This document shows, one piece after another, positions 8,099 through 50,111 of a stretch of DNA of 64,000 nt. Made by a program: the position numbers and the translations under genes. The stretch covers positions 24,215-88,214 of the forward strand of contig JBBTXZ010000005.1 in assembly GCA_038062015.1 (NCBI GenBank), in the 5' to 3' direction. The notes under the pieces are model-generated. The model saw only the letters and a program-made list of their open reading frames with translations. It did not search any database and was not told the DNA's origin. How positions within the stretch are numbered: position 1 is the stretch's first letter; each line of letters begins with the position of its first letter. This DNA comes from Patescibacteria group bacterium (GTDB lineage: Bacteria > Patescibacteriota > Minisyncoccia > 2-02-FULL-40-12).

Positions 8099-8102
8099 CC
8101 AA

Positions 8103-8134
8103 CCTACAAAAAATGATATATCATTTTTTGTAGG
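8103..8134. terminator. Perfect palindromic hairpin (cctacaaaaaatgatatatcattttttgtagg), intrinsic terminator
   Basis: Inverted repeat seen directly after the glyQS stop. Confidence 0.7.
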
Positions 8135-8158
8135 TTGAAGTTTGAAAACCCGAGATTT

Positions 8159-10517: not shown

Positions 10518-11192
10518 ATGGCTATTCTTTATATTGTTGCCACGCCGATCGGCAATTTGAAAGATTTCACGACCCGTGCCATCGAAACCTTGAAAGAGGT
10601 TGATTTTATTTTAGCCGAAGATACTCGTGAAACCATTAAACTTTTAAACTTTTATACCATCAAGAAACCATTAATATCATACTTTCAGCATAGCCGACTT
10701 AGTAAGATTGAGTATATTTTGGATTTATTAAAACAGGGGAAAAGCCTGGCTTTGGTTTCTGATGCCGGCACGCCCGGAATAAATGATCCGGGCGGAAAAC
10801 TGGTTGCCGAGATTGTTAAAAGGTTTGGCGATTCCGTGAGAATAGTTCCTATCCCCGGGCCGAATGCGGCAATTACGGCATTAAGTATCTGTGGTTTAAA
10901 TGCTGACCGATTTATGTTTTTAGGCTATCTGCCTCATAAAAAGGGCCGACAAAAGTTTTTTACCGAAATCTTGAAATCACGATATCCCGTAATAATTTAT
11001 GAATCGCCCCATCGGATTTTAAAAACCCTGAATGAGCTAGACGGATTTGAAGAATTAAAAAACCGCGAAATTGTCGTCTGTCGCGAACTGACTAAAAAAT
11101 TCGAGACGATTTATCGCGGCACGATTTCCGAGGTTTTATTAAAAATTGAGAGAGGCATAGTAAAAGGGGAGTTTACTGTCGTTATAAAATGA
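10518..11192 (+). CDS. rsmI: 16S rRNA (cytidine1402-2'-O)-methyltransferase
   Basis: ILYIVATPIGNLKDFTTRAIETLKEVDFILAEDTR... tetrapyrrole-methylase fold typical of RsmI. ATG at 10518 preferred over the TTG at 10500. Confidence 0.85.
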   Translation: MAILYIVATPIGNLKDFTTRAIETLKEVDFILAEDTRETIKLLNFYTIKKPLISYFQHSRLSKIEYILDLLKQGKSLALVSDAGTPGINDPGGKLVAEIVKRFGDSVRIVPIPGPNAAITALSICGLNADRFMFLGYLPHKKGRQKFFTEILKSRYPVIIYESPHRILKTLNELDGFEELKNREIVVCRELTKKFETIYRGTISEVLLKIERGIVKGEFTVVIK

Positions 11193-11193
11193 T

Positions 11194-11229
11194 CCCTAAA
11201 TTTATGCTATAGCATAAATTTAGGGATAT
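11194..11229. promoter_or_regulatory. 36-bp perfect palindrome atccctaaatttatgctatagcataaatttagggat (terminator/operator) downstream of the PaaX-like gene
   Basis: Seen directly. A near-identical copy lies at 11800..11836 on the other side of the gene. Confidence 0.8.
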
Positions 11230-11783
11230 TATTCTAGATTGTATTTCTTTTTTAATTTAGTTTCACCGTCTATTTCGGTTATCTCGCCTAATTTTACAAA
11301 AGGTTTAACTTCAAAGAGTTTTAGTATAAACTCTACCTCGTTCTCTAATGGATAAGGATGAATCCAAACGCTTTTCTGGAACTGGTATAAGCCAAGCCCT
11401 TTTAGTTTTTCTCTTAATGCGTTAGCCCGACCTTTAAATTTATTAGGGATGTCAAACATAACAAAACGCCATTTGCCGTCCCATTTTTTCATTGGCCTGA
11501 TTTTTAATTTTTCAAGATCGTATCCAAGTATTTTCTTTTTTCCATTTTTGGATAATTCGACTTTCATACTGCCATCGGGATTTTCTTTTATAATGATAAG
11601 TTTTCGTTCTTTAAGAGCGTGGATTACTTTGCCGATTTTATTATTGTATTTTCTTTTGATGAATTTATTTTTATTTAAGGCACTGAAAATGTTTGGAGCC
11701 ATTGCTCCGGTGATAGTAATTAATCCAAGTAATCCAACTCCTATTAGTATTTTTTTGATCAGTTCTTTTCTATCCGGATTCAT
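11229..11783 (-). CDS. Membrane-anchored winged-helix + PaaX_C/Cas2-fold domain protein (putative autoregulator), paralog of 43635..44231
   Basis: N-terminal TM helix, a wHTH-like middle, and C-terminal WDGKWRFVMFDIP...RANALREKL..LG..QFQKSVW (Cas2/PaaX-C-like pattern). Bracketed by two near-identical palindromes. Confidence 0.5.
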   Translation of the reverse strand: MNPDRKELIKKILIGVGLLGLITITGAMAPNIFSALNKNKFIKRKYNNKIGKVIHALKERKLIIIKENPDGSMKVELSKNGKKKILGYDLEKLKIRPMKKWDGKWRFVMFDIPNKFKGRANALREKLKGLGLYQFQKSVWIHPYPLENEVEFILKLFEVKPFVKLGEITEIDGETKLKKKYNLE

Positions 11784-11799
11784 TGTTTGAATTATATCT

Positions 11800-11836
11800 C
11801 CATCCCTAAAATTATGCTATAGCATAATTTTAGGGA
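11800..11836. promoter_or_regulatory. Palindrome ccatccctaaaattatgctatagcataattttagggatgg upstream of the PaaX-like gene start (candidate operator)
   Basis: Seen directly, ~17 bp upstream of the start codon at 11783. Confidence 0.7.
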
Positions 11837-11942
11837 TGGAGAGGAACGGGGAATAATAATACGGGGAATAATAATTATGAGGATAATTATTTGATTATCA
11901 GCGACTTTATTTTTGAGTATATAGTTGATATGATTTTGTATT

Positions 11943-22728: not shown

Positions 22729-23622
22729 ATGTATCCAAATCTGCGAATAATTATTTTAGGGGTATTAACTCTATTTTTGGTTTTGACCTTTGTGGTTGAA
22801 TTCCGTGGCGAATACGGACTTAAAGTCTATTTTTTTGATGTCGGCCAGGGCGATTCAATTTTTATTGAAACAGAAGAAAAGAAACAAATTCTGATTGACG
22901 GCGGGCCGGATAACAAAGTGGTTCAAAAATTATCAGAAGCAATGCCATTTTGGGACCGAACCATAGACTTGGTTATTCTGACTCATCCGGACAAGGACCA
23001 TATCTTAGGTTTAATCGAAGTCTTGAAAAGATACCGAGTTAAGGGAATCATTGAAACTGGAATCGAATGCGGGAAAGCGGAATGTGTAGTCTGGAAAGAG
23101 TTGAAAGAAAAAGAAAAAGCGCCGGTTATTTTCGTGAAACTCGGCGACTCGTTAATACTTAACGAAAATACTAAAATTTTAATTTTAAATCCTTTCGCCG
23201 ATATGGCCGGAGAAAAAATTTCAAAAGCCAATAATTCTTCTATCGTGGCTAAATTAATCTACGATGGATACAGCATTTTATTGACCGGCGATATTGAGAA
23301 ACATATTGAAGAAAAGCTGGTTCTGGCCGGAGTAGACATTGATTCTGATTATCTTAAAATTCCGCATCATGGTTCTAAGACCTCAACCACCGAAGAATTT
23401 TTGGAAAAAATTTCCCCGCTTTCGGCTTTTATCTCTCTCGGCAAGAATAATTCTTACGGCCATCCGCATGATGAAGTTACCGGCCGTCTTGAAAAAAGAA
23501 ATATAAAATATTATCGTACTGATGAACTGGGAACTATTTTATTGAGTTGCAAGTTTAATGAACCGTGTTCAGTAAAATTCCAAATTCCAAATTCCAAAAT
23601 CCAAATAACAAATGACAAATAA
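22729..23622 (+). CDS. MBL-fold metallo-hydrolase (the ComEC C-terminal beta-lactamase domain as a separate gene)
   Basis: VYFFDVGQGDSIFIE and LVILTHPDKDHILG motifs. The 3' end runs into a 'ccaaaatccaaa' repeat. Confidence 0.8.
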   Translation: MYPNLRIIILGVLTLFLVLTFVVEFRGEYGLKVYFFDVGQGDSIFIETEEKKQILIDGGPDNKVVQKLSEAMPFWDRTIDLVILTHPDKDHILGLIEVLKRYRVKGIIETGIECGKAECVVWKELKEKEKAPVIFVKLGDSLILNENTKILILNPFADMAGEKISKANNSSIVAKLIYDGYSILLTGDIEKHIEEKLVLAGVDIDSDYLKIPHHGSKTSTTEEFLEKISPLSAFISLGKNNSYGHPHDEVTGRLEKRNIKYYRTDELGTILLSCKFNEPCSVKFQIPNSKIQITNDK

Positions 23623-23653
23623 AATCCAAAATCCAAATTCCAAAATAAATAAG

Positions 23654-24997: not shown

Positions 24998-25053
24998 TCT
25001 GGTTTAATCCCGAAGAAATCTGCGACTACAAGAGAGTGGAAGAGTTGATTTAA
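24998..25053. repeat. 56-bp direct repeat, copy 2 (duplicate of the ndk 3' end), followed by the original ndk terminator
   Basis: Identical to 24203..24259. Followed by aaaaaccgctttaagcggttttttgg. Confidence 0.9.
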
Positions 25054-25056
25054 AAC

Positions 25057-25084
25057 CAAAAAACCGCTTTAAGCGGTTTTTTGG
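25057..25084. terminator. Bidirectional intrinsic terminator aaaaaccgctttaagcggttttttgg
   Basis: Stem-loop flanked by A-run and T-run. Confidence 0.8.
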
Positions 25085-25091
25085 TTTTAGT

Positions 25092-27100: not shown

Positions 27101-27305
27101 CAGAGAGAATATAGAACACAGAATATAGAATATAGGATATAGGATATAGAATAAGAATGACCAATTCCTTTAAGGATTTGATAGTTTGGCAAAAGTCTAA
27201 ACAACTAGCCGTAGAAATATATAAACTAATTTAGAAGAAATAATGAAAATATTAAACAACTTTGTTAAGAAGTTATCTTAGTTTTAATTCTATATTCTAA
27301 ATTCT
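27101..27305. repeat. ~200-bp spacer bounded by inverted 'tagaat'-type repeat arrays (MITE-like element)
   Basis: Left end gaatatagaatataggatataggatatagaat. Right end ttctatattctaaattctat (inverse). A compact version lies at 39181..39258. Confidence 0.5.
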
Positions 27306-29860: not shown

Positions 29861-29952
29861 ACCGAGCACATAAATTAGCCGAAAAAAGGCTAATTTATGT
29901 GCTCGGTGAGCGATTTTGCAGCTGCTCACTTCGTTCGCAGGCGAAAATCGTC

Positions 29953-33338: not shown

Positions 33339-34149
33339 ACCCATAACTCCGGGAAGAAGACAGATGACTGGCTACAATTTCAATGGTTTGATTAAAACCA
33401 GGCCTTTAAAATCTTTGACTAAGAATTTTAAAAGAAGTTTCGGCCGTTCCGGCAACGGAAGAATCACTTCAAGGCATTTAGGCGGGGGTCATAAAAAACT
33501 ATACCGTTTGGTTGATTTCAAGCAGGACAAATTAGATATGCCGGCCAGAGTCAAGACTATTGAATACGATCCATATCGGTCATCTAGGATTGCCTTGGTT
33601 GCTTATGCCGATGGAGAAAAGAGATATATTTTATCGCCTGACGGGCTTAAGATTGGAGAAAAAATACAGTCTTTTTCCGGAAAAGGAAATTTGGATAACG
33701 GTAACAGGATGAAGTTAAGATTTATTCCTCAAGGAACGTTGGTCCATAATATTGAATTAAATCCTGGTCAGGGCGGGAAAATGGCCAGATCAGCCGGTTC
33801 TTCGGCTCAAGTTCTGGCTCAGGATAATAAATATACCCAGCTAAAAATGCCTTCCGGAGAAGTAAGAATGGTTTTGTCGGAAAGCCGGGCTTCGATAGGC
33901 CAGCTTTCAAATCCAGAGCATATTCATATCAGCCTTGGGAAAGCCGGAAGATCGCGTTGGCTTGGAAAAAGGCCGAAAGTCCGCGGTTCGGCCATGAATC
34001 CGGTTGACCATCCGCATGGCGGCGGCGAAGGCAGGCAGGGCATCGGTTTAACCGGTCCTAAAACCCCTTGGGGCAAGCCGGCTAGGGGGGTAAAAACCAG
34101 AAAAAGAAAGAAGAAGTCGAGCAAGTTAATTTTAAAGAGAAGAAAGTAA
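33325..34149 (+). CDS. rplB: 50S ribosomal protein L2
   Basis: L2 pattern including the ...GSAMNPVDHPHGGGEG signature. Confidence 0.95.
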   Translation: MKQYKPITPGRRQMTGYNFNGLIKTRPLKSLTKNFKRSFGRSGNGRITSRHLGGGHKKLYRLVDFKQDKLDMPARVKTIEYDPYRSSRIALVAYADGEKRYILSPDGLKIGEKIQSFSGKGNLDNGNRMKLRFIPQGTLVHNIELNPGQGGKMARSAGSSAQVLAQDNKYTQLKMPSGEVRMVLSESRASIGQLSNPEHIHISLGKAGRSRWLGKRPKVRGSAMNPVDHPHGGGEGRQGIGLTGPKTPWGKPARGVKTRKRKKKSSKLILKRRK

Positions 34150-34226
34150 CATCTACAAAATTACAAATCATTTACGAATATACAAATTTGTATATTTGTA
34201 GGGATTTGTAAATTCGTAGATATTTA

Positions 34227-36216: not shown

Positions 36217-36292
36217 TACTACGAAGTACGAATCAGTCCGAATGTACGAATTCGTATATTCGTAAAGATTCGTAAATTCGTAGTTTAACATT

Positions 36293-36921: not shown

Positions 36922-36997
36922 ATCTACGAATTTACCAATTCATTACAAATATACAAATATTTGTATATTTGTAGAGATTTGTAATTTTGTAGATAAA

Positions 36998-37851: not shown

Positions 37852-38037
37852 ATGGCTAAAAAATCACTAGTTTCCAGATTGAATAAACCGAAAAAATACA
37901 AAGTTAGAAAAGTTAACCATTGTTTTATTTGCGGCCGGACAAGAGGCTATATCAGAAAATTTGATTTATGCCGGATACATTTTAGGGAGTTAGCCTCGAA
38001 AGGGGAGATCCCGGGGGTAAAGAAATCATCATGGTAA
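37852..38037 (+). CDS. rpsZ: 30S ribosomal protein S14 type Z (zinc-binding)
   Basis: 61 aa with CFICGR...CRIH cysteines and the S14 pattern. Confidence 0.9.
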
Positions 38038-38167
38038 AGGCTTGGTTGAAAAATTCAAGCCAAAGGCGTAGAATTTTTCAACCAAGCCTTTACCCGCCTA
38101 AGGCGGGCGCTCAACTTTGTAGTTGTTCGCTTCACCCCGCTGAGCGGGGATTCGCTCACAAACAAAA

Positions 38168-39183: not shown

Positions 39184-39258
39184 AGATAGAACATAGAATA
39201 TAGAATATAGAATGTAGAATACGATCCTATGTTCTATATTCTAAATTCTACATTCTAA

Positions 39259-39585
39259 ATGGATTCAAAAGAAAAACGACAAAAAAGAATAAGACGGCAT
39301 AAACGGGTGAGAGCGGTTGTGAAAGGCACAAGTGAGCGGCCTCGTTTTTCTGTTTTTCGTTCAAACAAACGGATTTACGCTCAACTGATTGACGATTTCA
39401 GAGGGATGACTTTATTAAACGGGAGCAATGTTAAAACATCTGCTTTTAAGGTCGGAGAAACTTTGGCGAAAAAAGCATTAGAGAAGGGAATAAATTCAGT
39501 TGTTTTTGATAGAGGAGGATATAAATATCACGGCCAAGTTAAGGCTTTAGCCGAAGGGGCAAGAAAAGGCGGATTGAAATTTTAG
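39259..39585 (+). CDS. rplR: 50S ribosomal protein L18
   Basis: L18 pattern (...[20 protein letters not shown]...). Confidence 0.92.
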
Positions 39586-40790: not shown

Positions 40791-41213
40791 ATGGAAAATA
40801 AACTAAAAGAAACAACGAGTGCTGGTGGTATAGTGATAAATCAGAAAGGAGATATTCTGGTGGTTAGTCAACATGGTACCTCTTGGTCATTGCCCAAGGG
40901 TCATGTTGAAGAAGGAGAAAATTATTTGACTACAGCAAAGCGTGAAATATATGAAGAGTCAGGCATTAAAGACCTCAAATTTATAAAAGAACTTGGCAGT
41001 TATCAACGAAATAAGATAAGTTTAGATGGAGGAGATGATCCTTCAGAAATAAAAACGATTCATATGTTTTTGTTTAAAACAGCTGATTCTAGTTTAAAGC
41101 CTCAAGATCCTATGAACCCAGAAGCACGATGGGTTAACAAAAATGATGTGGGGAAATTGCTCACTCATACTAAAGATAGAGAATTCTTTGAAAGAGTAAA
41201 AGCGGAATTATAA
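40791..41213 (+). CDS. NUDIX hydrolase
   Basis: Nudix box GHVEEGENYLTTAKREIYEESGI. Confidence 0.85.
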   Translation: MENKLKETTSAGGIVINQKGDILVVSQHGTSWSLPKGHVEEGENYLTTAKREIYEESGIKDLKFIKELGSYQRNKISLDGGDDPSEIKTIHMFLFKTADSSLKPQDPMNPEARWVNKNDVGKLLTHTKDREFFERVKAEL

Positions 41214-42912: not shown

Positions 42913-43572
42913 ATGTATAAAGTCATTTTCTTAATCGGGCCGCCGGGGTCAGGGAAAGGGACGCAAGCCGAGCTTTTAGCCAAAGAACTCGGTTTTTATC
43001 ATTTTGAAATTTCAAAAGTGATTGAGAAGAATTTTAAGGAGGCTGATTCGAGCGACAAAGAAATCAGCCACCAAAAAGAACATTGGATTGCTGGAGAACT
43101 GATTCATCCTGAACTTGTTTCAAGTTGGTTTATAGAAGAAGTTGAGTTACTTAAAGATAAAGTAAGCGGTTTTGTTTTTTCAGGCTCCGGAAGAAATTTA
43201 AAAGAAATAGAAGAGGAATTGGGTTATTTGGAAAAGATTTACGGCCAGGAGAATATTGCGGCAGTTGAAATAAAATTGAGCGAGGAAGAATCGGTAAAAA
43301 GAAACAGCCATCGCCGGATTTGTTCAAAAAATCGCCATCCGATTCCGAATTTTCCGGAATACGCCGATATAAAAGTTTGCCCCGAAGACGGTTCAGAAAT
43401 TATTACCCGACCTTTGGATAAGCCGGAAATAATAAAGGAGCGTTATAAAGTTTATCTTCAGGAGACTCAACCGGTGATTGAATATTTCAGACAGAACGGA
43501 TATAAAGTGATGGAAGTTAATGGCGAACAGCCGATTGAGAAAGTATTCCAAGACATTAAATTATCTCTTTAA
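42913..43572 (+). CDS. adk: Adenylate kinase (long form, zinc-binding LID)
   Basis: P-loop GPPGSGKGTQ and LID cysteines C...C...C. Confidence 0.9.
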   Translation: MYKVIFLIGPPGSGKGTQAELLAKELGFYHFEISKVIEKNFKEADSSDKEISHQKEHWIAGELIHPELVSSWFIEEVELLKDKVSGFVFSGSGRNLKEIEEELGYLEKIYGQENIAAVEIKLSEEESVKRNSHRRICSKNRHPIPNFPEYADIKVCPEDGSEIITRPLDKPEIIKERYKVYLQETQPVIEYFRQNGYKVMEVNGEQPIEKVFQDIKLSL

Positions 43573-43589
43573 TCTAAATTAAACTTATA

Positions 43590-43625
43590 TTACAATTGTA
43601 ATATAAGTTTAATTTTTGATTTAAT
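43590..43625. promoter_or_regulatory. Perfect palindrome aaacttatattacaattgtaatataagttt upstream of the PaaX-like paralog 2 (candidate operator)
   Basis: Seen directly, ~10 bp before the ATG at 43635. Confidence 0.75.
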
Positions 43626-43634
43626 GGAATTTTA

Positions 43635-44231
43635 ATGAAACTTGGTGAATTAAGGGTCAAAAAAGAAAGCTTTACTTTAAAAGTTCTTAAAGCCGTAGCA
43701 ATTGGAGGGATGGCATTAATTGCTACTTCAAATAAACGCTTTTGGCTTGATTTTTATTTAAACTTTAATAAAGAGTTAAATAGATATAAAACACAGAAAG
43801 AAAGAAGTAAATTGTATCATGCCCTTAGATACTTAAGAGGGAGAAAATTTGTAGATGTTGCAGAAAGACCAGATGGTTTATTGGTAAAAATCAGCACTAA
43901 AGGGTATGAAGTAGTTAAATTTTTTGAATCCATTGAGAAAATGAATTTAATAAAGCCTACCAAATGGGACGGTAAATTCCGATTAGTTATTTTTGATATA
44001 CCTGCAAAAAAGCAGGGAGCGCGCATTGTTTTTATACAAAAGCTAAAAGAAATGAATTTTTATATGCTTCAAAAAAGTATTTGGGTCCATCCTTACGATT
44101 GTACTAATGAAATTGCAGTTCTTAAAAAATTATTTGAAATAGAACCTTATGTTAAAATAGTCGTTGCAGATGCAATAGAAGAACCTTATAAGATTTTAAA
44201 GAATTTTAATTTATTTAAAAGAATGTTGTAG
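43635..44231 (+). CDS. Membrane-anchored wHTH + PaaX_C/Cas2-fold domain protein, paralog of 11229..11783, inserted between adk and map
   Basis: KWDGKFRLVIFDIPAKKQGARIVFIQKLKEMNFYMLQKSIWVHPY aligns with WDGKWRFVMFDIPNKFKGRANALREKLKGLGLYQFQKSVWIHPY of the other copy. Confidence 0.5.
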   Translation: MKLGELRVKKESFTLKVLKAVAIGGMALIATSNKRFWLDFYLNFNKELNRYKTQKERSKLYHALRYLRGRKFVDVAERPDGLLVKISTKGYEVVKFFESIEKMNLIKPTKWDGKFRLVIFDIPAKKQGARIVFIQKLKEMNFYMLQKSIWVHPYDCTNEIAVLKKLFEIEPYVKIVVADAIEEPYKILKNFNLFKRML

Positions 44232-44262
44232 ATATATTACAATTGTAATATATCTTTAATTT
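44232..44262. promoter_or_regulatory. Palindrome agatatattacaattgtaatatatct downstream of paralog 2 (terminator / second operator copy)
   Basis: Seen directly. Same tatattacaattgtaatata core as the upstream palindrome. Confidence 0.7.
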
Positions 44263-45039
44263 GTGGGAATTATTACTAAATCAGAAAAAGAAATAGCAAT
44301 AATGAAAGAAGGTGGAAATATTTTGGCAGAGATTCTTAAAAAACTCGCCACAGAAATAAAAATTGGAATAGCCACTATGGAATTAGAGAATCTAGCCCGC
44401 CAATTAATAGAAAAAGCCAGAGCAGAGTCGGCCTTTTTGGGATTTAAAAATTATCCAGCAGTTTTGTGTACTTCTGTTAATGAGGAAGTAGTCCATGCTA
44501 AACCTTCTTATAGAGTATTAAAGGAAGGCGATTTACTCAAAATTGATATGGGAATTCTTTATAGAGGATTTTATACTGATTCGGCGATTACTCTACTTGT
44601 AACAGATTGGGCTATTTTTAAGATAGAACAACAAGAAGAGTATTTTCAGAAAAATAAACTGATTAAAACTACAAAAGAATGTCTTGAAATCGGGATTTCT
44701 CAAGCAAAAATCGGTAATACAATCGGCGATATTTCTTTTGCTATTCAAAATCACGCCGAAAAAAATGGTTTTTCGGTGATTCAGGATTTAGTCGGCCACG
44801 GCATCGGCCGCGAACTTCACGAAGAACCCGAGGTGCCGAATTTCGGCGCTCCGGGTAAAGGTCCGAAACTAAAAGAAGGAATGGTAATTGCCATTGAGCC
44901 GATGCTCTCGGCCGGTTCTCATGAAGTTATAGAAGATAAAAAAACTTTGGCTTGGATGACAAAAGACAGTTCTTTATCGGCTCATTTCGAACATACTATA
45001 GCAATAATAAAAAGTGGTCCGTTGGTGTTAACTAAGTAG
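44263..45039 (+). CDS. map: Type I methionine aminopeptidase (GTG start)
   Basis: MetAP pattern with metal ligands (D...D...H...E...E context: LVGHGIGRELHEEP). Confidence 0.9.
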   Translation: MGIITKSEKEIAIMKEGGNILAEILKKLATEIKIGIATMELENLARQLIEKARAESAFLGFKNYPAVLCTSVNEEVVHAKPSYRVLKEGDLLKIDMGILYRGFYTDSAITLLVTDWAIFKIEQQEEYFQKNKLIKTTKECLEIGISQAKIGNTIGDISFAIQNHAEKNGFSVIQDLVGHGIGRELHEEPEVPNFGAPGKGPKLKEGMVIAIEPMLSAGSHEVIEDKKTLAWMTKDSSLSAHFEHTIAIIKSGPLVLTK

Positions 45040-50060: not shown

Positions 50061-50111
50061 ACCCAGCTTACAAATAATGATATATCATAAAAAGTAAGCT
50101 GGAGGAAAATT

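Follow-up and report, generated by a model that had tools for sequence, protein, structure and literature searches.

The 64,000-nucleotide (nt) stretch of DNA analysed here (the window; contig JBBTXZ010000005.1 of assembly GCA_038062015.1, from a Patescibacteria group bacterium) carries a palindrome-bracketed gene between adk and map (methionine aminopeptidase). We read the ~690-bp segment that separates these two genes (about 43573–44262) as an acquired, self-contained cassette of one gene and two sites, and assign this reading a probability of roughly 0.55. The cassette would encode a short DNA-binding protein of PaaX type and carry its predicted cognate ~40-bp site twice, and would have been inserted as a unit. 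The original prediction called it the second palindrome-bracketed PaaX/Cas2-like cassette of this DNA, a description that is borne out by the domain content, the fold and the paired palindromes. The locus, which has secY (PF00344) upstream of adk, is made up as follows.

42913..43572, plus strand: adk, the left flank of the insertion (PF00406)
43576..43615, no strand: upstream palindrome, 40 nt, perfect, zero loop, with the arms AAATTAAACTTATATTACAA and TTGTAATATAAGTTTAATTT
43586..43615, plus strand: left copy of a 30-nt direct repeat, TATATTACAATTGTAATATA AG TTTAATTT
43635..44231, plus strand: cassette gene, 198 amino acids (aa), the sole open reading frame (ORF) between the two palindromes
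44230..44255, no strand: downstream palindrome, 26 nt, perfect, with the arms AGATATATTACAA and TTGTAATATATCT
44233..44262, plus strand: right copy of the 30-nt direct repeat, TATATTACAATTGTAATATA TC TTTAATTT
44263..45039, plus strand: map, the right flank of the insertion (PF00557), with a GTG start at 44263

The upstream palindrome is separated by 3 nt from the stop codon of adk and by 19 nt from the ATG of the cassette gene; folded as a hairpin, it has a free energy of -14.7 kcal/mol (z -8.8). The downstream palindrome takes in the final two bases of the cassette gene's TAG stop codon and ends 7 nt before the GTG of map, and its A+T-rich stem comprises 13 pairs only (-6.4 kcal/mol). Both palindromes are centred on a copy of the 20-mer TATATTACAATTGTAATATA, with a C-N4-G centre. 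This 20-mer is present in exactly two copies in the 64 kb (43586–43605 and 44233–44252); none is expected by chance, and none of 100 shuffles matched it, even with 3 mismatches allowed. The two copies of the 30-nt direct repeat differ by 2 mismatches (AG to TC), and the last base of the right copy immediately precedes the map start codon. For the AG-to-TC differences, the left arm of the downstream copy has the matching changes, and both copies thereby remain palindromic. The 8-mer TCTTTAAT is found at both outer edges of the cassette (43566–43573 and 44253–44260), where it belongs to the A+T-rich palindrome arm; we do not claim it as a target-site duplication, since a rough estimate gives it a few percent by chance, and no clear duplication is seen at the cassette beyond the palindrome itself. 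A comparison of the palindrome with Rfam returned no family and just two microRNA matches at chance level, so a known RNA family is rejected.

It had also been proposed that the gene interrupts the secY-adk-map order by insertion, and a synteny comparison confirms this. A scan with the adk protein collected 26 metagenome loci from relatives, 22 of which hold both adk and map. The map gene directly follows adk, with no family gene there, in 21 of the 22 (adk identities 27–86%); several of these junctions are ATGA stop/start overlaps, and the remaining gaps are at most about 190 nt. No solo palindrome is present at these empty sites. The sole other occupied junction is in locus L100 (adk 53% identical). 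Its family member is 31% identical to the 198-aa protein and 37–41% identical to other members, and the cassette bears a different repeat, TTTAAACGATCGTCTTAAA, on both sides. This distance, the closer similarity to other members and the separate repeat indicate an independent insertion at the same junction. Neither adk nor map adjoins a family gene in any of 80 homolog loci from species-representative genomes, and the closest homologs (63–66% identical) reside in three other contexts: between UvrD and ksgA in the same metagenome-assembled genome (MAG), in a pilin gene region, and downstream of dnaE. Orthologs at this position in related genomes, which would speak for vertical descent, are thus not what we find. 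These data support the insertion of the cassette into an ancestral adk/map junction. All contigs with an identical cassette protein, adk or map show the same arrangement; the cassette is fixed in its own population, and neither an empty site nor a solo-palindrome allele occurs among these contigs of the same species.

Recent transposition is not borne out by the same kind of comparison. Each exact protein that was checked (5–18 contigs per protein) occupies a single context, including P0001 (9 contigs), P0028 (18) and P0023 (11). There are no near-identical multi-copy elements, the paralogs in the genome being just 33% and 65% identical, and no homologs were found on phages, plasmids or viral contigs in IMG/VR, INPHARED and PLSDB.

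The first cassette locus that the original prediction referred to exists as well, as a paralog (paralog 1) with a palindrome family of its own.

11189..11230, no strand: downstream palindrome of paralog 1, of the same sequence family as its upstream one
11229..11783, minus strand: paralog 1, 184 aa, 33.5% identical to the 198-aa protein (PaaX_M E=4e-19)
11797..11842, no strand: upstream palindrome of paralog 1, 46 nt, perfect, with the arms TCTCCATCCCTAAAATTATGCTA and TAGCATAATTTTAGGGATGGAGA

The core of the paralog 1 palindromes, CCCTAAAATTATGCTA followed by TAGCATAATTTTAGGG across the dyad, differs from that of the adk/map cassette, and the downstream palindrome lies between the ends of rsmI and paralog 1, two convergent genes. 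In 4 relatives (rsmI 73–79% identical), rsmI is followed directly by metG at a distance of 31–90 nt; paralog 1 is likewise an insertion, between rsmI and metG. Palindromes at both boundaries and empty sites in relatives (21/22 at adk/map and 4/4 at rsmI/metG) constitute the insertion-type evidence at both loci. The third paralog of the MAG, located between UvrD and ksgA, is 65% identical to the 198-aa protein. A perfect tandem duplication of the 15-mer ACGGGGAATAATAAT (11846–11875) directly adjoins the outer side of the palindrome upstream of paralog 1 and is part of the inserted segment, and the UvrD-type helicase gene beside the third paralog (L081, 2543–5689) carries an intein (PF14890).

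The junctions of the ribosomal protein, secY, adk and map string are variable in relatives beyond this family. Short non-coding inserts occupy adk/map in other relatives (L089, 2515–2700; L097, 1047–1170; L092, 3892–3970); one of them, G+C-rich and 186 nt long, contains a long inverted repeat and resembles a miniature inverted-repeat transposable element, and the remaining ones are A+T-rich with inverted or heptamer repeats. HicA/HicB toxin-antitoxin pairs, a DUF5674 gene and other small ORFs are found at L15/secY and secY/adk (variable content at L094, 3448–3988; L107, 1089–1498; L096, 3279–3983), and the window itself has a Nudix gene between L15 and secY (40791–41213). The variable small genes at L15/secY, secY/adk and adk/map indicate that this gene string is a landing zone for accessory modules.

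The 198-aa protein matches the Pfam domain PaaX_M (PF20803, 'PaaX protein central Cas2-like domain') over aa 109–182 with E=3.8e-17 and 62.6 bits (cut-off 24). The TIGR01573 cas2 model scores 19.6 bits, below its cut-off of 24.5, and the TIGR02277 PaaX model 22.8 bits, far under its cut-off of 264.55. PADLOC gave weak Cas2 and LmuC matches, none of them significant for a system, with Cas2 models at E 2e-4 or worse. The AlphaFold2 model (predicted local distance difference test score, pLDDT, 76.7) contains an N-terminal predicted winged helix-turn-helix (helices 13–26, 44–48 and 54–69; wing 73–86), which is joined by a linker helix (88–101) to a ferredoxin domain of Cas2 fold (115–178; beta-alpha-beta-beta-alpha-beta) that includes the FDIP and QKSxW motifs. 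The best structural match of the model is PaaX (PDB code: 8a39), and a weak match to the PaaX N-terminal winged helix was obtained for one family member. The protein ends ~15 residues past the Cas2-fold domain and gives no match to PaaX_C (PF08223). Domain searches return the winged helix and the PaaX_M/Cas2-fold domain only, with no transposase or recombinase domain, including the Y1 type of the HUH class. Sequence searches of solved structures with the single domain found no match, profile searches gave marginal matches only to Cas2 and Rv0674 (E 0.02–0.05), and a PHROGs search yielded nothing informative.

The alignment of 179 family members reveals that D121 and S148 are invariant, and W111, D112, R116, F120, P123, R130, Q146, P153 and C156 are nearly so. 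The domain profile aligns xViFDIP...R...L...GF..LQKSVW of the family with LVVYDVS...R...L...GL..IQRSAF of Cas2, including the metal-binding Asp of Cas2. The PaaX-like protein Rv0674 shares with the family a W-x-G-x-W motif ahead of strand 1, and has IVTSIG at the place of the Cas2 Asp, which it therefore lacks. This pattern suggests a PaaX architecture that has kept the hallmark residues of Cas2. Near the N terminus, residues ~12–31 (window 43668–43727) form a hydrophobic segment with an invariant Gly, which is transmembrane-like in hydropathy in 140 of the 179 members and borderline in the 198-aa protein; the AlphaFold2 model assigns it to helix 1 of the winged helix, and some subfamilies may be membrane-anchored.

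A profile search (E≤1e-3) defines a family of 5953 cluster representatives (50% identity clusters), with 478 matches in species-representative genomes. The palindrome survey covers the 80 homolog loci kept from these genomes, which contain 86 cassettes; a long palindrome was defined as having arms of at least 14 nt and a loop of at most 4 nt. Nearly all 80 loci are titled Patescibacteria or Candidate Phyla Radiation (CPR), with one Nanoarchaeota and two Bdellovibrionales. The immediate flanks of the family genes hold 40 of the 58 long palindromes, and the density is 0.47 per kb beside the family genes versus 0.037 per kb elsewhere (~13-fold). At least one flanking palindrome accompanies 36 of the 86 cassettes, with one on each side in 20, and two further cassettes have palindromes on both sides. 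Upstream palindromes end 0–54 nt ahead of the start codon, and downstream ones mostly begin within a few nt of the stop codon. The flanking palindromes span 34–52 nt and have zero loop in 51 of 56 cases. Their central hexamers are CATATG, CCATGG, CTATAG, CGATCG, CACGTG, CAATTG and a few others. Counted from the dyad, position 3 is C in 47/51 and position 4 is G in 39/51, which gives a GC-N4-GC centre family-wide; positions 8–11 are A/T, and positions 12–20 are cassette-specific.

The palindromes diverge together with the proteins (Mantel r=0.45, with none of 2000 permutations as high). The identity of the half-sites is 0.72 at a protein identity above 60% and about 0.41 below 45%. Within the subfamily of 63–66% identity, the half-site ATTACA is kept in four genomic contexts while the central tetranucleotide varies (ACGT, ATAT, AATT); the constancy of the half-site across the four contexts indicates that the site travels with the gene. 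Comparison of the copies that flank one gene gives 277 identical arm positions, 36 positions that are changed in both arms symmetrically, and 27 that are unpaired in one copy. Each gene of this kind is paired with a private palindrome across the family. Compound arrangements also occur. Locus L025 (3262–4609) has the order palindrome, gene, palindrome, family gene, palindrome, in which the third cognate copy precedes an unannotated 157-aa ORF with a hydrophobic N-terminal stretch, and L034 (2196–4510) has two family genes side by side, each with its own palindrome pair. Short-read assemblies break exactly at the flanking palindromes: L120–L122 start at the core, and L138–L140 end 16–31 nt past the gene. 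As a consequence of such breaks, cassettes can be expected to lie often at contig ends or to be lost from MAGs, and surveys of flanks to undercount the palindromes.

Palindromes of the same class are also found in the window without a family gene.

8100..8137, no strand: solo palindrome, 38 nt, perfect, zero loop, without an adjacent family gene
50063..50102, no strand: solo palindrome, 40 nt, zero loop, same class, no family gene nearby

Both fill intergenic gaps exactly. The one at 8100–8137 separates the genes of a class II tRNA synthetase and an M16 peptidase, which overlap (ATGA) in three relatives, so the solo palindrome itself has been inserted. The half-site of the other matches 14 of 17 positions of a family-gene palindrome in another genome (L066). 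In the DNA examined, each type of flanking palindrome occurs just twice, and the two solos of the 64 kb are of other types.

We propose that the protein forms dimers by way of its Cas2-fold domain, in the manner of PaaX, and that the two winged helices of the dimer would read the outer, cassette-specific arms of the ~40-bp palindrome, with the conserved centre (C-N4-G here, GC-N4-GC in the family) placed under the conserved dimer core. The site recognised by PaaX of E. coli is TGATTC(N27)GAATCA, 39 bp long with half-sites 14–19 bp from the dyad, and PaaX acts as an occluding repressor of its own promoter (PMC9493321). The palindromes of the family, with a span of 34–52 bp and specific positions 12–20 from the dyad, fall within the same range as the PaaX site. 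The protein would accordingly be expected to repress its own transcription from the upstream site, as PaaX does at Px; the upstream site lies where the promoter and leader must be, which makes autorepression the most likely role for it. The downstream site would be an intrinsic part of the unit that marks its other boundary, and its position 7 nt from the map start may also put map expression under the influence of the protein in this genome. The whole site-gene-site unit would have been inserted at the adk/map junction in the lineage of this species, where it is now fixed. As an operator of the next gene, the downstream palindrome is ruled out for the family, because the gene beyond it is convergent in 13 of 28 cases.

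Several observations weigh against this regulatory reading, beginning with those convergent neighbours, which leave the second site with no obvious regulatory logic. Over half of the family loci have no long palindrome at the thresholds used. The palindromes are far more perfect than typical operators, and the contact of a repressor with a few bases does not alone explain them; inserted solo palindromes are not how operators usually arise either. The aspartate equivalent to that of Cas2 (D121) is invariant in 179/179 members and absent in Rv0674, which hints at something beyond dimerisation. Without the ligand-binding C-terminal domain of PaaX, no signal input is apparent, and the function of the protein is one that we infer. 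A scan for sigma-70-type promoters in 43400–44450 gave 8 sites versus 5.2 ± 2.6 in shuffles, not above chance, and the accompanying scan found no terminator-like sites; both are usable as evidence neither for nor against. The protein may in addition have a nuclease or recombination role, for which the invariant Cas2 Asp, the conserved GC-N4-GC centre and the inserted solos leave room.

Those same features lead to an alternative that we hold to be unlikely, in which the cassette mobilises itself: the protein would be a nuclease or recombinase with its winged helices on the flanking palindromes and its Cas2-fold dimer at their centre. Recombination between the direct copies would then excise the cassette and leave a solo palindrome, or a staggered cut at a solo palindrome, followed by fill-in, would duplicate the palindrome on insertion, as happens to the CRISPR repeat. 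Palindromes indeed form the cassette boundaries at the two independent insertions of the window and in L100, a 30-nt direct repeat brackets the gene, solo palindromes of this class have been inserted between genes that overlap in relatives, and the 63–66% relatives occupy four contexts. The Asp at the Cas2 catalytic position is accompanied by the conserved S148, Q146 and R130, the GC-N4-GC centre resembles a restriction site in its hexamers, and symmetry through the centre (51/56) fits the templating of one arm from the other. If this were so, the units of Patescibacteria would represent, improbably, a new minimal element whose Cas2-fold protein recognises, and cuts or duplicates, its own private ~40-bp palindrome; at similarly poor odds, the protein would create or maintain its own flanking repeats and leave or use the solos, as a Cas1-independent cousin of CRISPR repeat duplication, and, again doubtfully, would be a functional bridge between Cas2 and the PaaX regulators. 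We know of no transposase or recombinase activity in Cas2-fold proteins, however, and the nuclease activity of Cas2 is dispensable even in CRISPR adaptation. The empty adk/map sites offer no solo palindrome as a target, each exact protein checked stays in a single context without near-identical copies, plasmids, phages and viral contigs lack homologs, and no clear target-site duplication extends beyond the palindrome. A less probable possibility is that the palindromes act as RNA or single-stranded DNA hairpins, that is, as terminators, insulators or stabilisers that bracket the transcript; the link with the protein would be incidental, or its Cas2/VapD-like domain would bind or cleave the RNA for post-transcriptional autoregulation. 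The hairpins are very stable compared with shuffles (z -5 to -10), the 36 compensatory arm differences between copies are a classic stem signature, the G-C pairs beside the 4-nt centre are like a loop-closing pair, and the downstream copy begins at the stop codon and is followed by the T-rich run TTTAATTT. Some Cas2 and VapD proteins are RNases, and the structure 3exc is deposited as one. Yet the symmetry extends across the central 4 nt in 51 of 56 palindromes, where a free loop would be symmetric in ~1 in 16 by chance. The map gene is essential, and an efficient terminator 7 nt ahead of its start would shut off its expression, as no promoter could fit in between; the scan of the locus has no terminator-like site, the stems are A+T-rich and short in the downstream case, and Rfam holds no matching family. 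A generic terminator needs neither a sequence private to each gene nor co-divergence with the protein, both of which are observed.

We think it quite improbable that the gene is a single-protein module of toxin-antitoxin or defence type, in which a Cas2/VapD-like 'toxin' is fused to an autoregulating DNA-binding domain and persists as a selfish addiction or defence gene. Type II toxin-antitoxin loci typically autoregulate through palindromic operators. In relatives, genuine HicAB pairs occur at the junction hotspots alongside other small accessory genes; the catalytic residues of Cas2 type are retained, and the family is very diverse and patchily distributed, as its number of clusters attests. 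On the other hand, a single ORF with no toxin or antitoxin partner lies between the palindromes of the adk/map cassette, a fused toxin cannot be released from its antitoxin, the PADLOC matches to Cas2 and LmuC are weak and not significant, and the second, downstream palindrome and the solos would be left unexplained. Least probable by far is an ordinary regulator that was inherited vertically and lost in relatives, or a remnant of a CRISPR-associated Cas2. One source annotates a homolog as 'CRISPR-associated endonuclease Cas2', and fixation in the population would suit vertical descent, but the synteny data contradict it: the 21 of 22 empty related junctions, some with overlapping genes, span adk identities of 27–86%, and the closest homologs are in other contexts. 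Beside the cassette there are adk and map and no cas gene, and none is found in any homolog neighbourhood with Pfam calls. The link with CRISPR is ruled out by the absence of an interspaced repeat array within the 64-kb window together with the sub-cut-off Cas2 scores, that of TIGR01573 among them.

On the reading that we prefer, an acquired cassette of a PaaX-type protein with its two sites, the known part is the truncated DNA-binding protein of PaaX type, and the new part is the private, perfect palindromes on both sides and the insertion as a unit. Full-text literature searches found no published description of the family or its layout, and NCBIfam has no dedicated model for it; sources name its members 'hypothetical protein', 'phenylacetic acid degradation operon negative regulatory protein' or 'CRISPR-associated endonuclease Cas2'. 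Patescibacteria have tiny genomes, few recognisable regulators and a poorly understood biology, and the family is large. Should its members be regulators, each with a private 40-bp operator, it may rank among the main families of transcription factors in Patescibacteria. It would then also supply a natural collection of orthogonal pairs of protein and site, since the flanks of each gene directly reveal the cognate site. Should the Cas2 fold instead act catalytically on the palindromes, the units would be mobile or selfish elements of a new kind, and their protein would be the first of the Cas2-like group to have its own sequence-specific activity on DNA, with a bearing on the relations of Cas2, VapD and PaaX. 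Either way, even the most conserved gene string of bacteria (ribosomal proteins, secY, adk and map) is a place where small accessory modules land in this clade.

Other repeats in the window are distinct from the cassette palindromes. Intergenic regions of the ribosomal protein cluster contain arrays of 7-nt units (TACAAAT, TACGAAT, ATAGAAT, AGAATAT, AAATTCC) at 34148–34225, 36227–36274, 36936–36993 and 39186–39260, and also at 23575–23644 and 27106–27158. The units are tandem, and the arrays, often inverted, form imperfect palindromes of 28–38 nt. Further perfect inverted repeats (arm/loop in nt) are located at 38033–38094 (24/14), 29861–29907 (20/7) and 25051–25089 (19/1); the latter two contain G+C, lie between A/T runs and resemble ordinary bidirectional terminators.

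Among the closest known systems is PaaX of E. coli (PDB code: 8a39; PF07848, PF20803 and PF08223), which likewise has an N-terminal winged helix, a predicted one in the cassette protein, followed by a Cas2-like middle domain. PaaX has a long palindromic site, to which the palindromes of 34–52 bp in the cassettes correspond, and autorepression, which is predicted here. Compared with PaaX, the cassette proteins are shorter (~190 aa versus ~310 aa) through the lack of the C-terminal ligand-binding domain, and the cassette score against TIGR02277 remains far from its cut-off. Linkage to paa genes is absent: adk and map adjoin the gene here, and UvrD and ksgA, dnaE, pilin genes, smpB or hpf adjoin homologs. 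In contrast to the PaaX-like Rv0674, the family keeps the Cas2 Asp (in FDIP). The sites of the cassettes are near-perfect palindromes on both sides of a gene that behaves as an insertable cassette, and the family is largely confined to Patescibacteria.

The likeness to Cas2 and VapD (PF09827, TIGR01573) lies in the motif alignment, including the metal-binding Asp. Integration by Cas1-Cas2 duplicates a partly palindromic repeat of ~30 bp around the inserted DNA, to which the repeat-gene-repeat order of the cassette is a formal analogy. The cassette has neither cas1 nor a CRISPR array, its DNA-binding domain is fused to the Cas2 fold, its scores are below the cut-offs, and the 'insert' between the repeats is the gene itself. 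The repetitive extragenic palindromic (REP) sequences with their REP-associated tyrosine transposases (RAYT), known as REPtrons or REPINs, likewise combine one gene with flanking palindromes that its protein is thought to recognise, additional gene-less copies of the palindrome in intergenic regions, and a gene that is single-copy and stably placed within a lineage. The cassette protein differs in having no Y1 (IS200/IS605-type) transposase, and the cassette palindromes are far longer, perfect and without a loop; in the DNA examined they occur as two copies per type and rare solos rather than in tens to hundreds. The resemblance to pdif modules and integron cassettes is that of small gene units bounded by short sites of imperfect or perfect palindromic form, which can be arrayed, as in L025 and L034. 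No recombinase gene was found in the six neighbourhoods that carry Pfam calls. Whereas pdif modules and integrons employ a common tyrosine recombinase, of the host or the integron, and a common site, each of the cassettes described here has a private site that co-varies with its protein.

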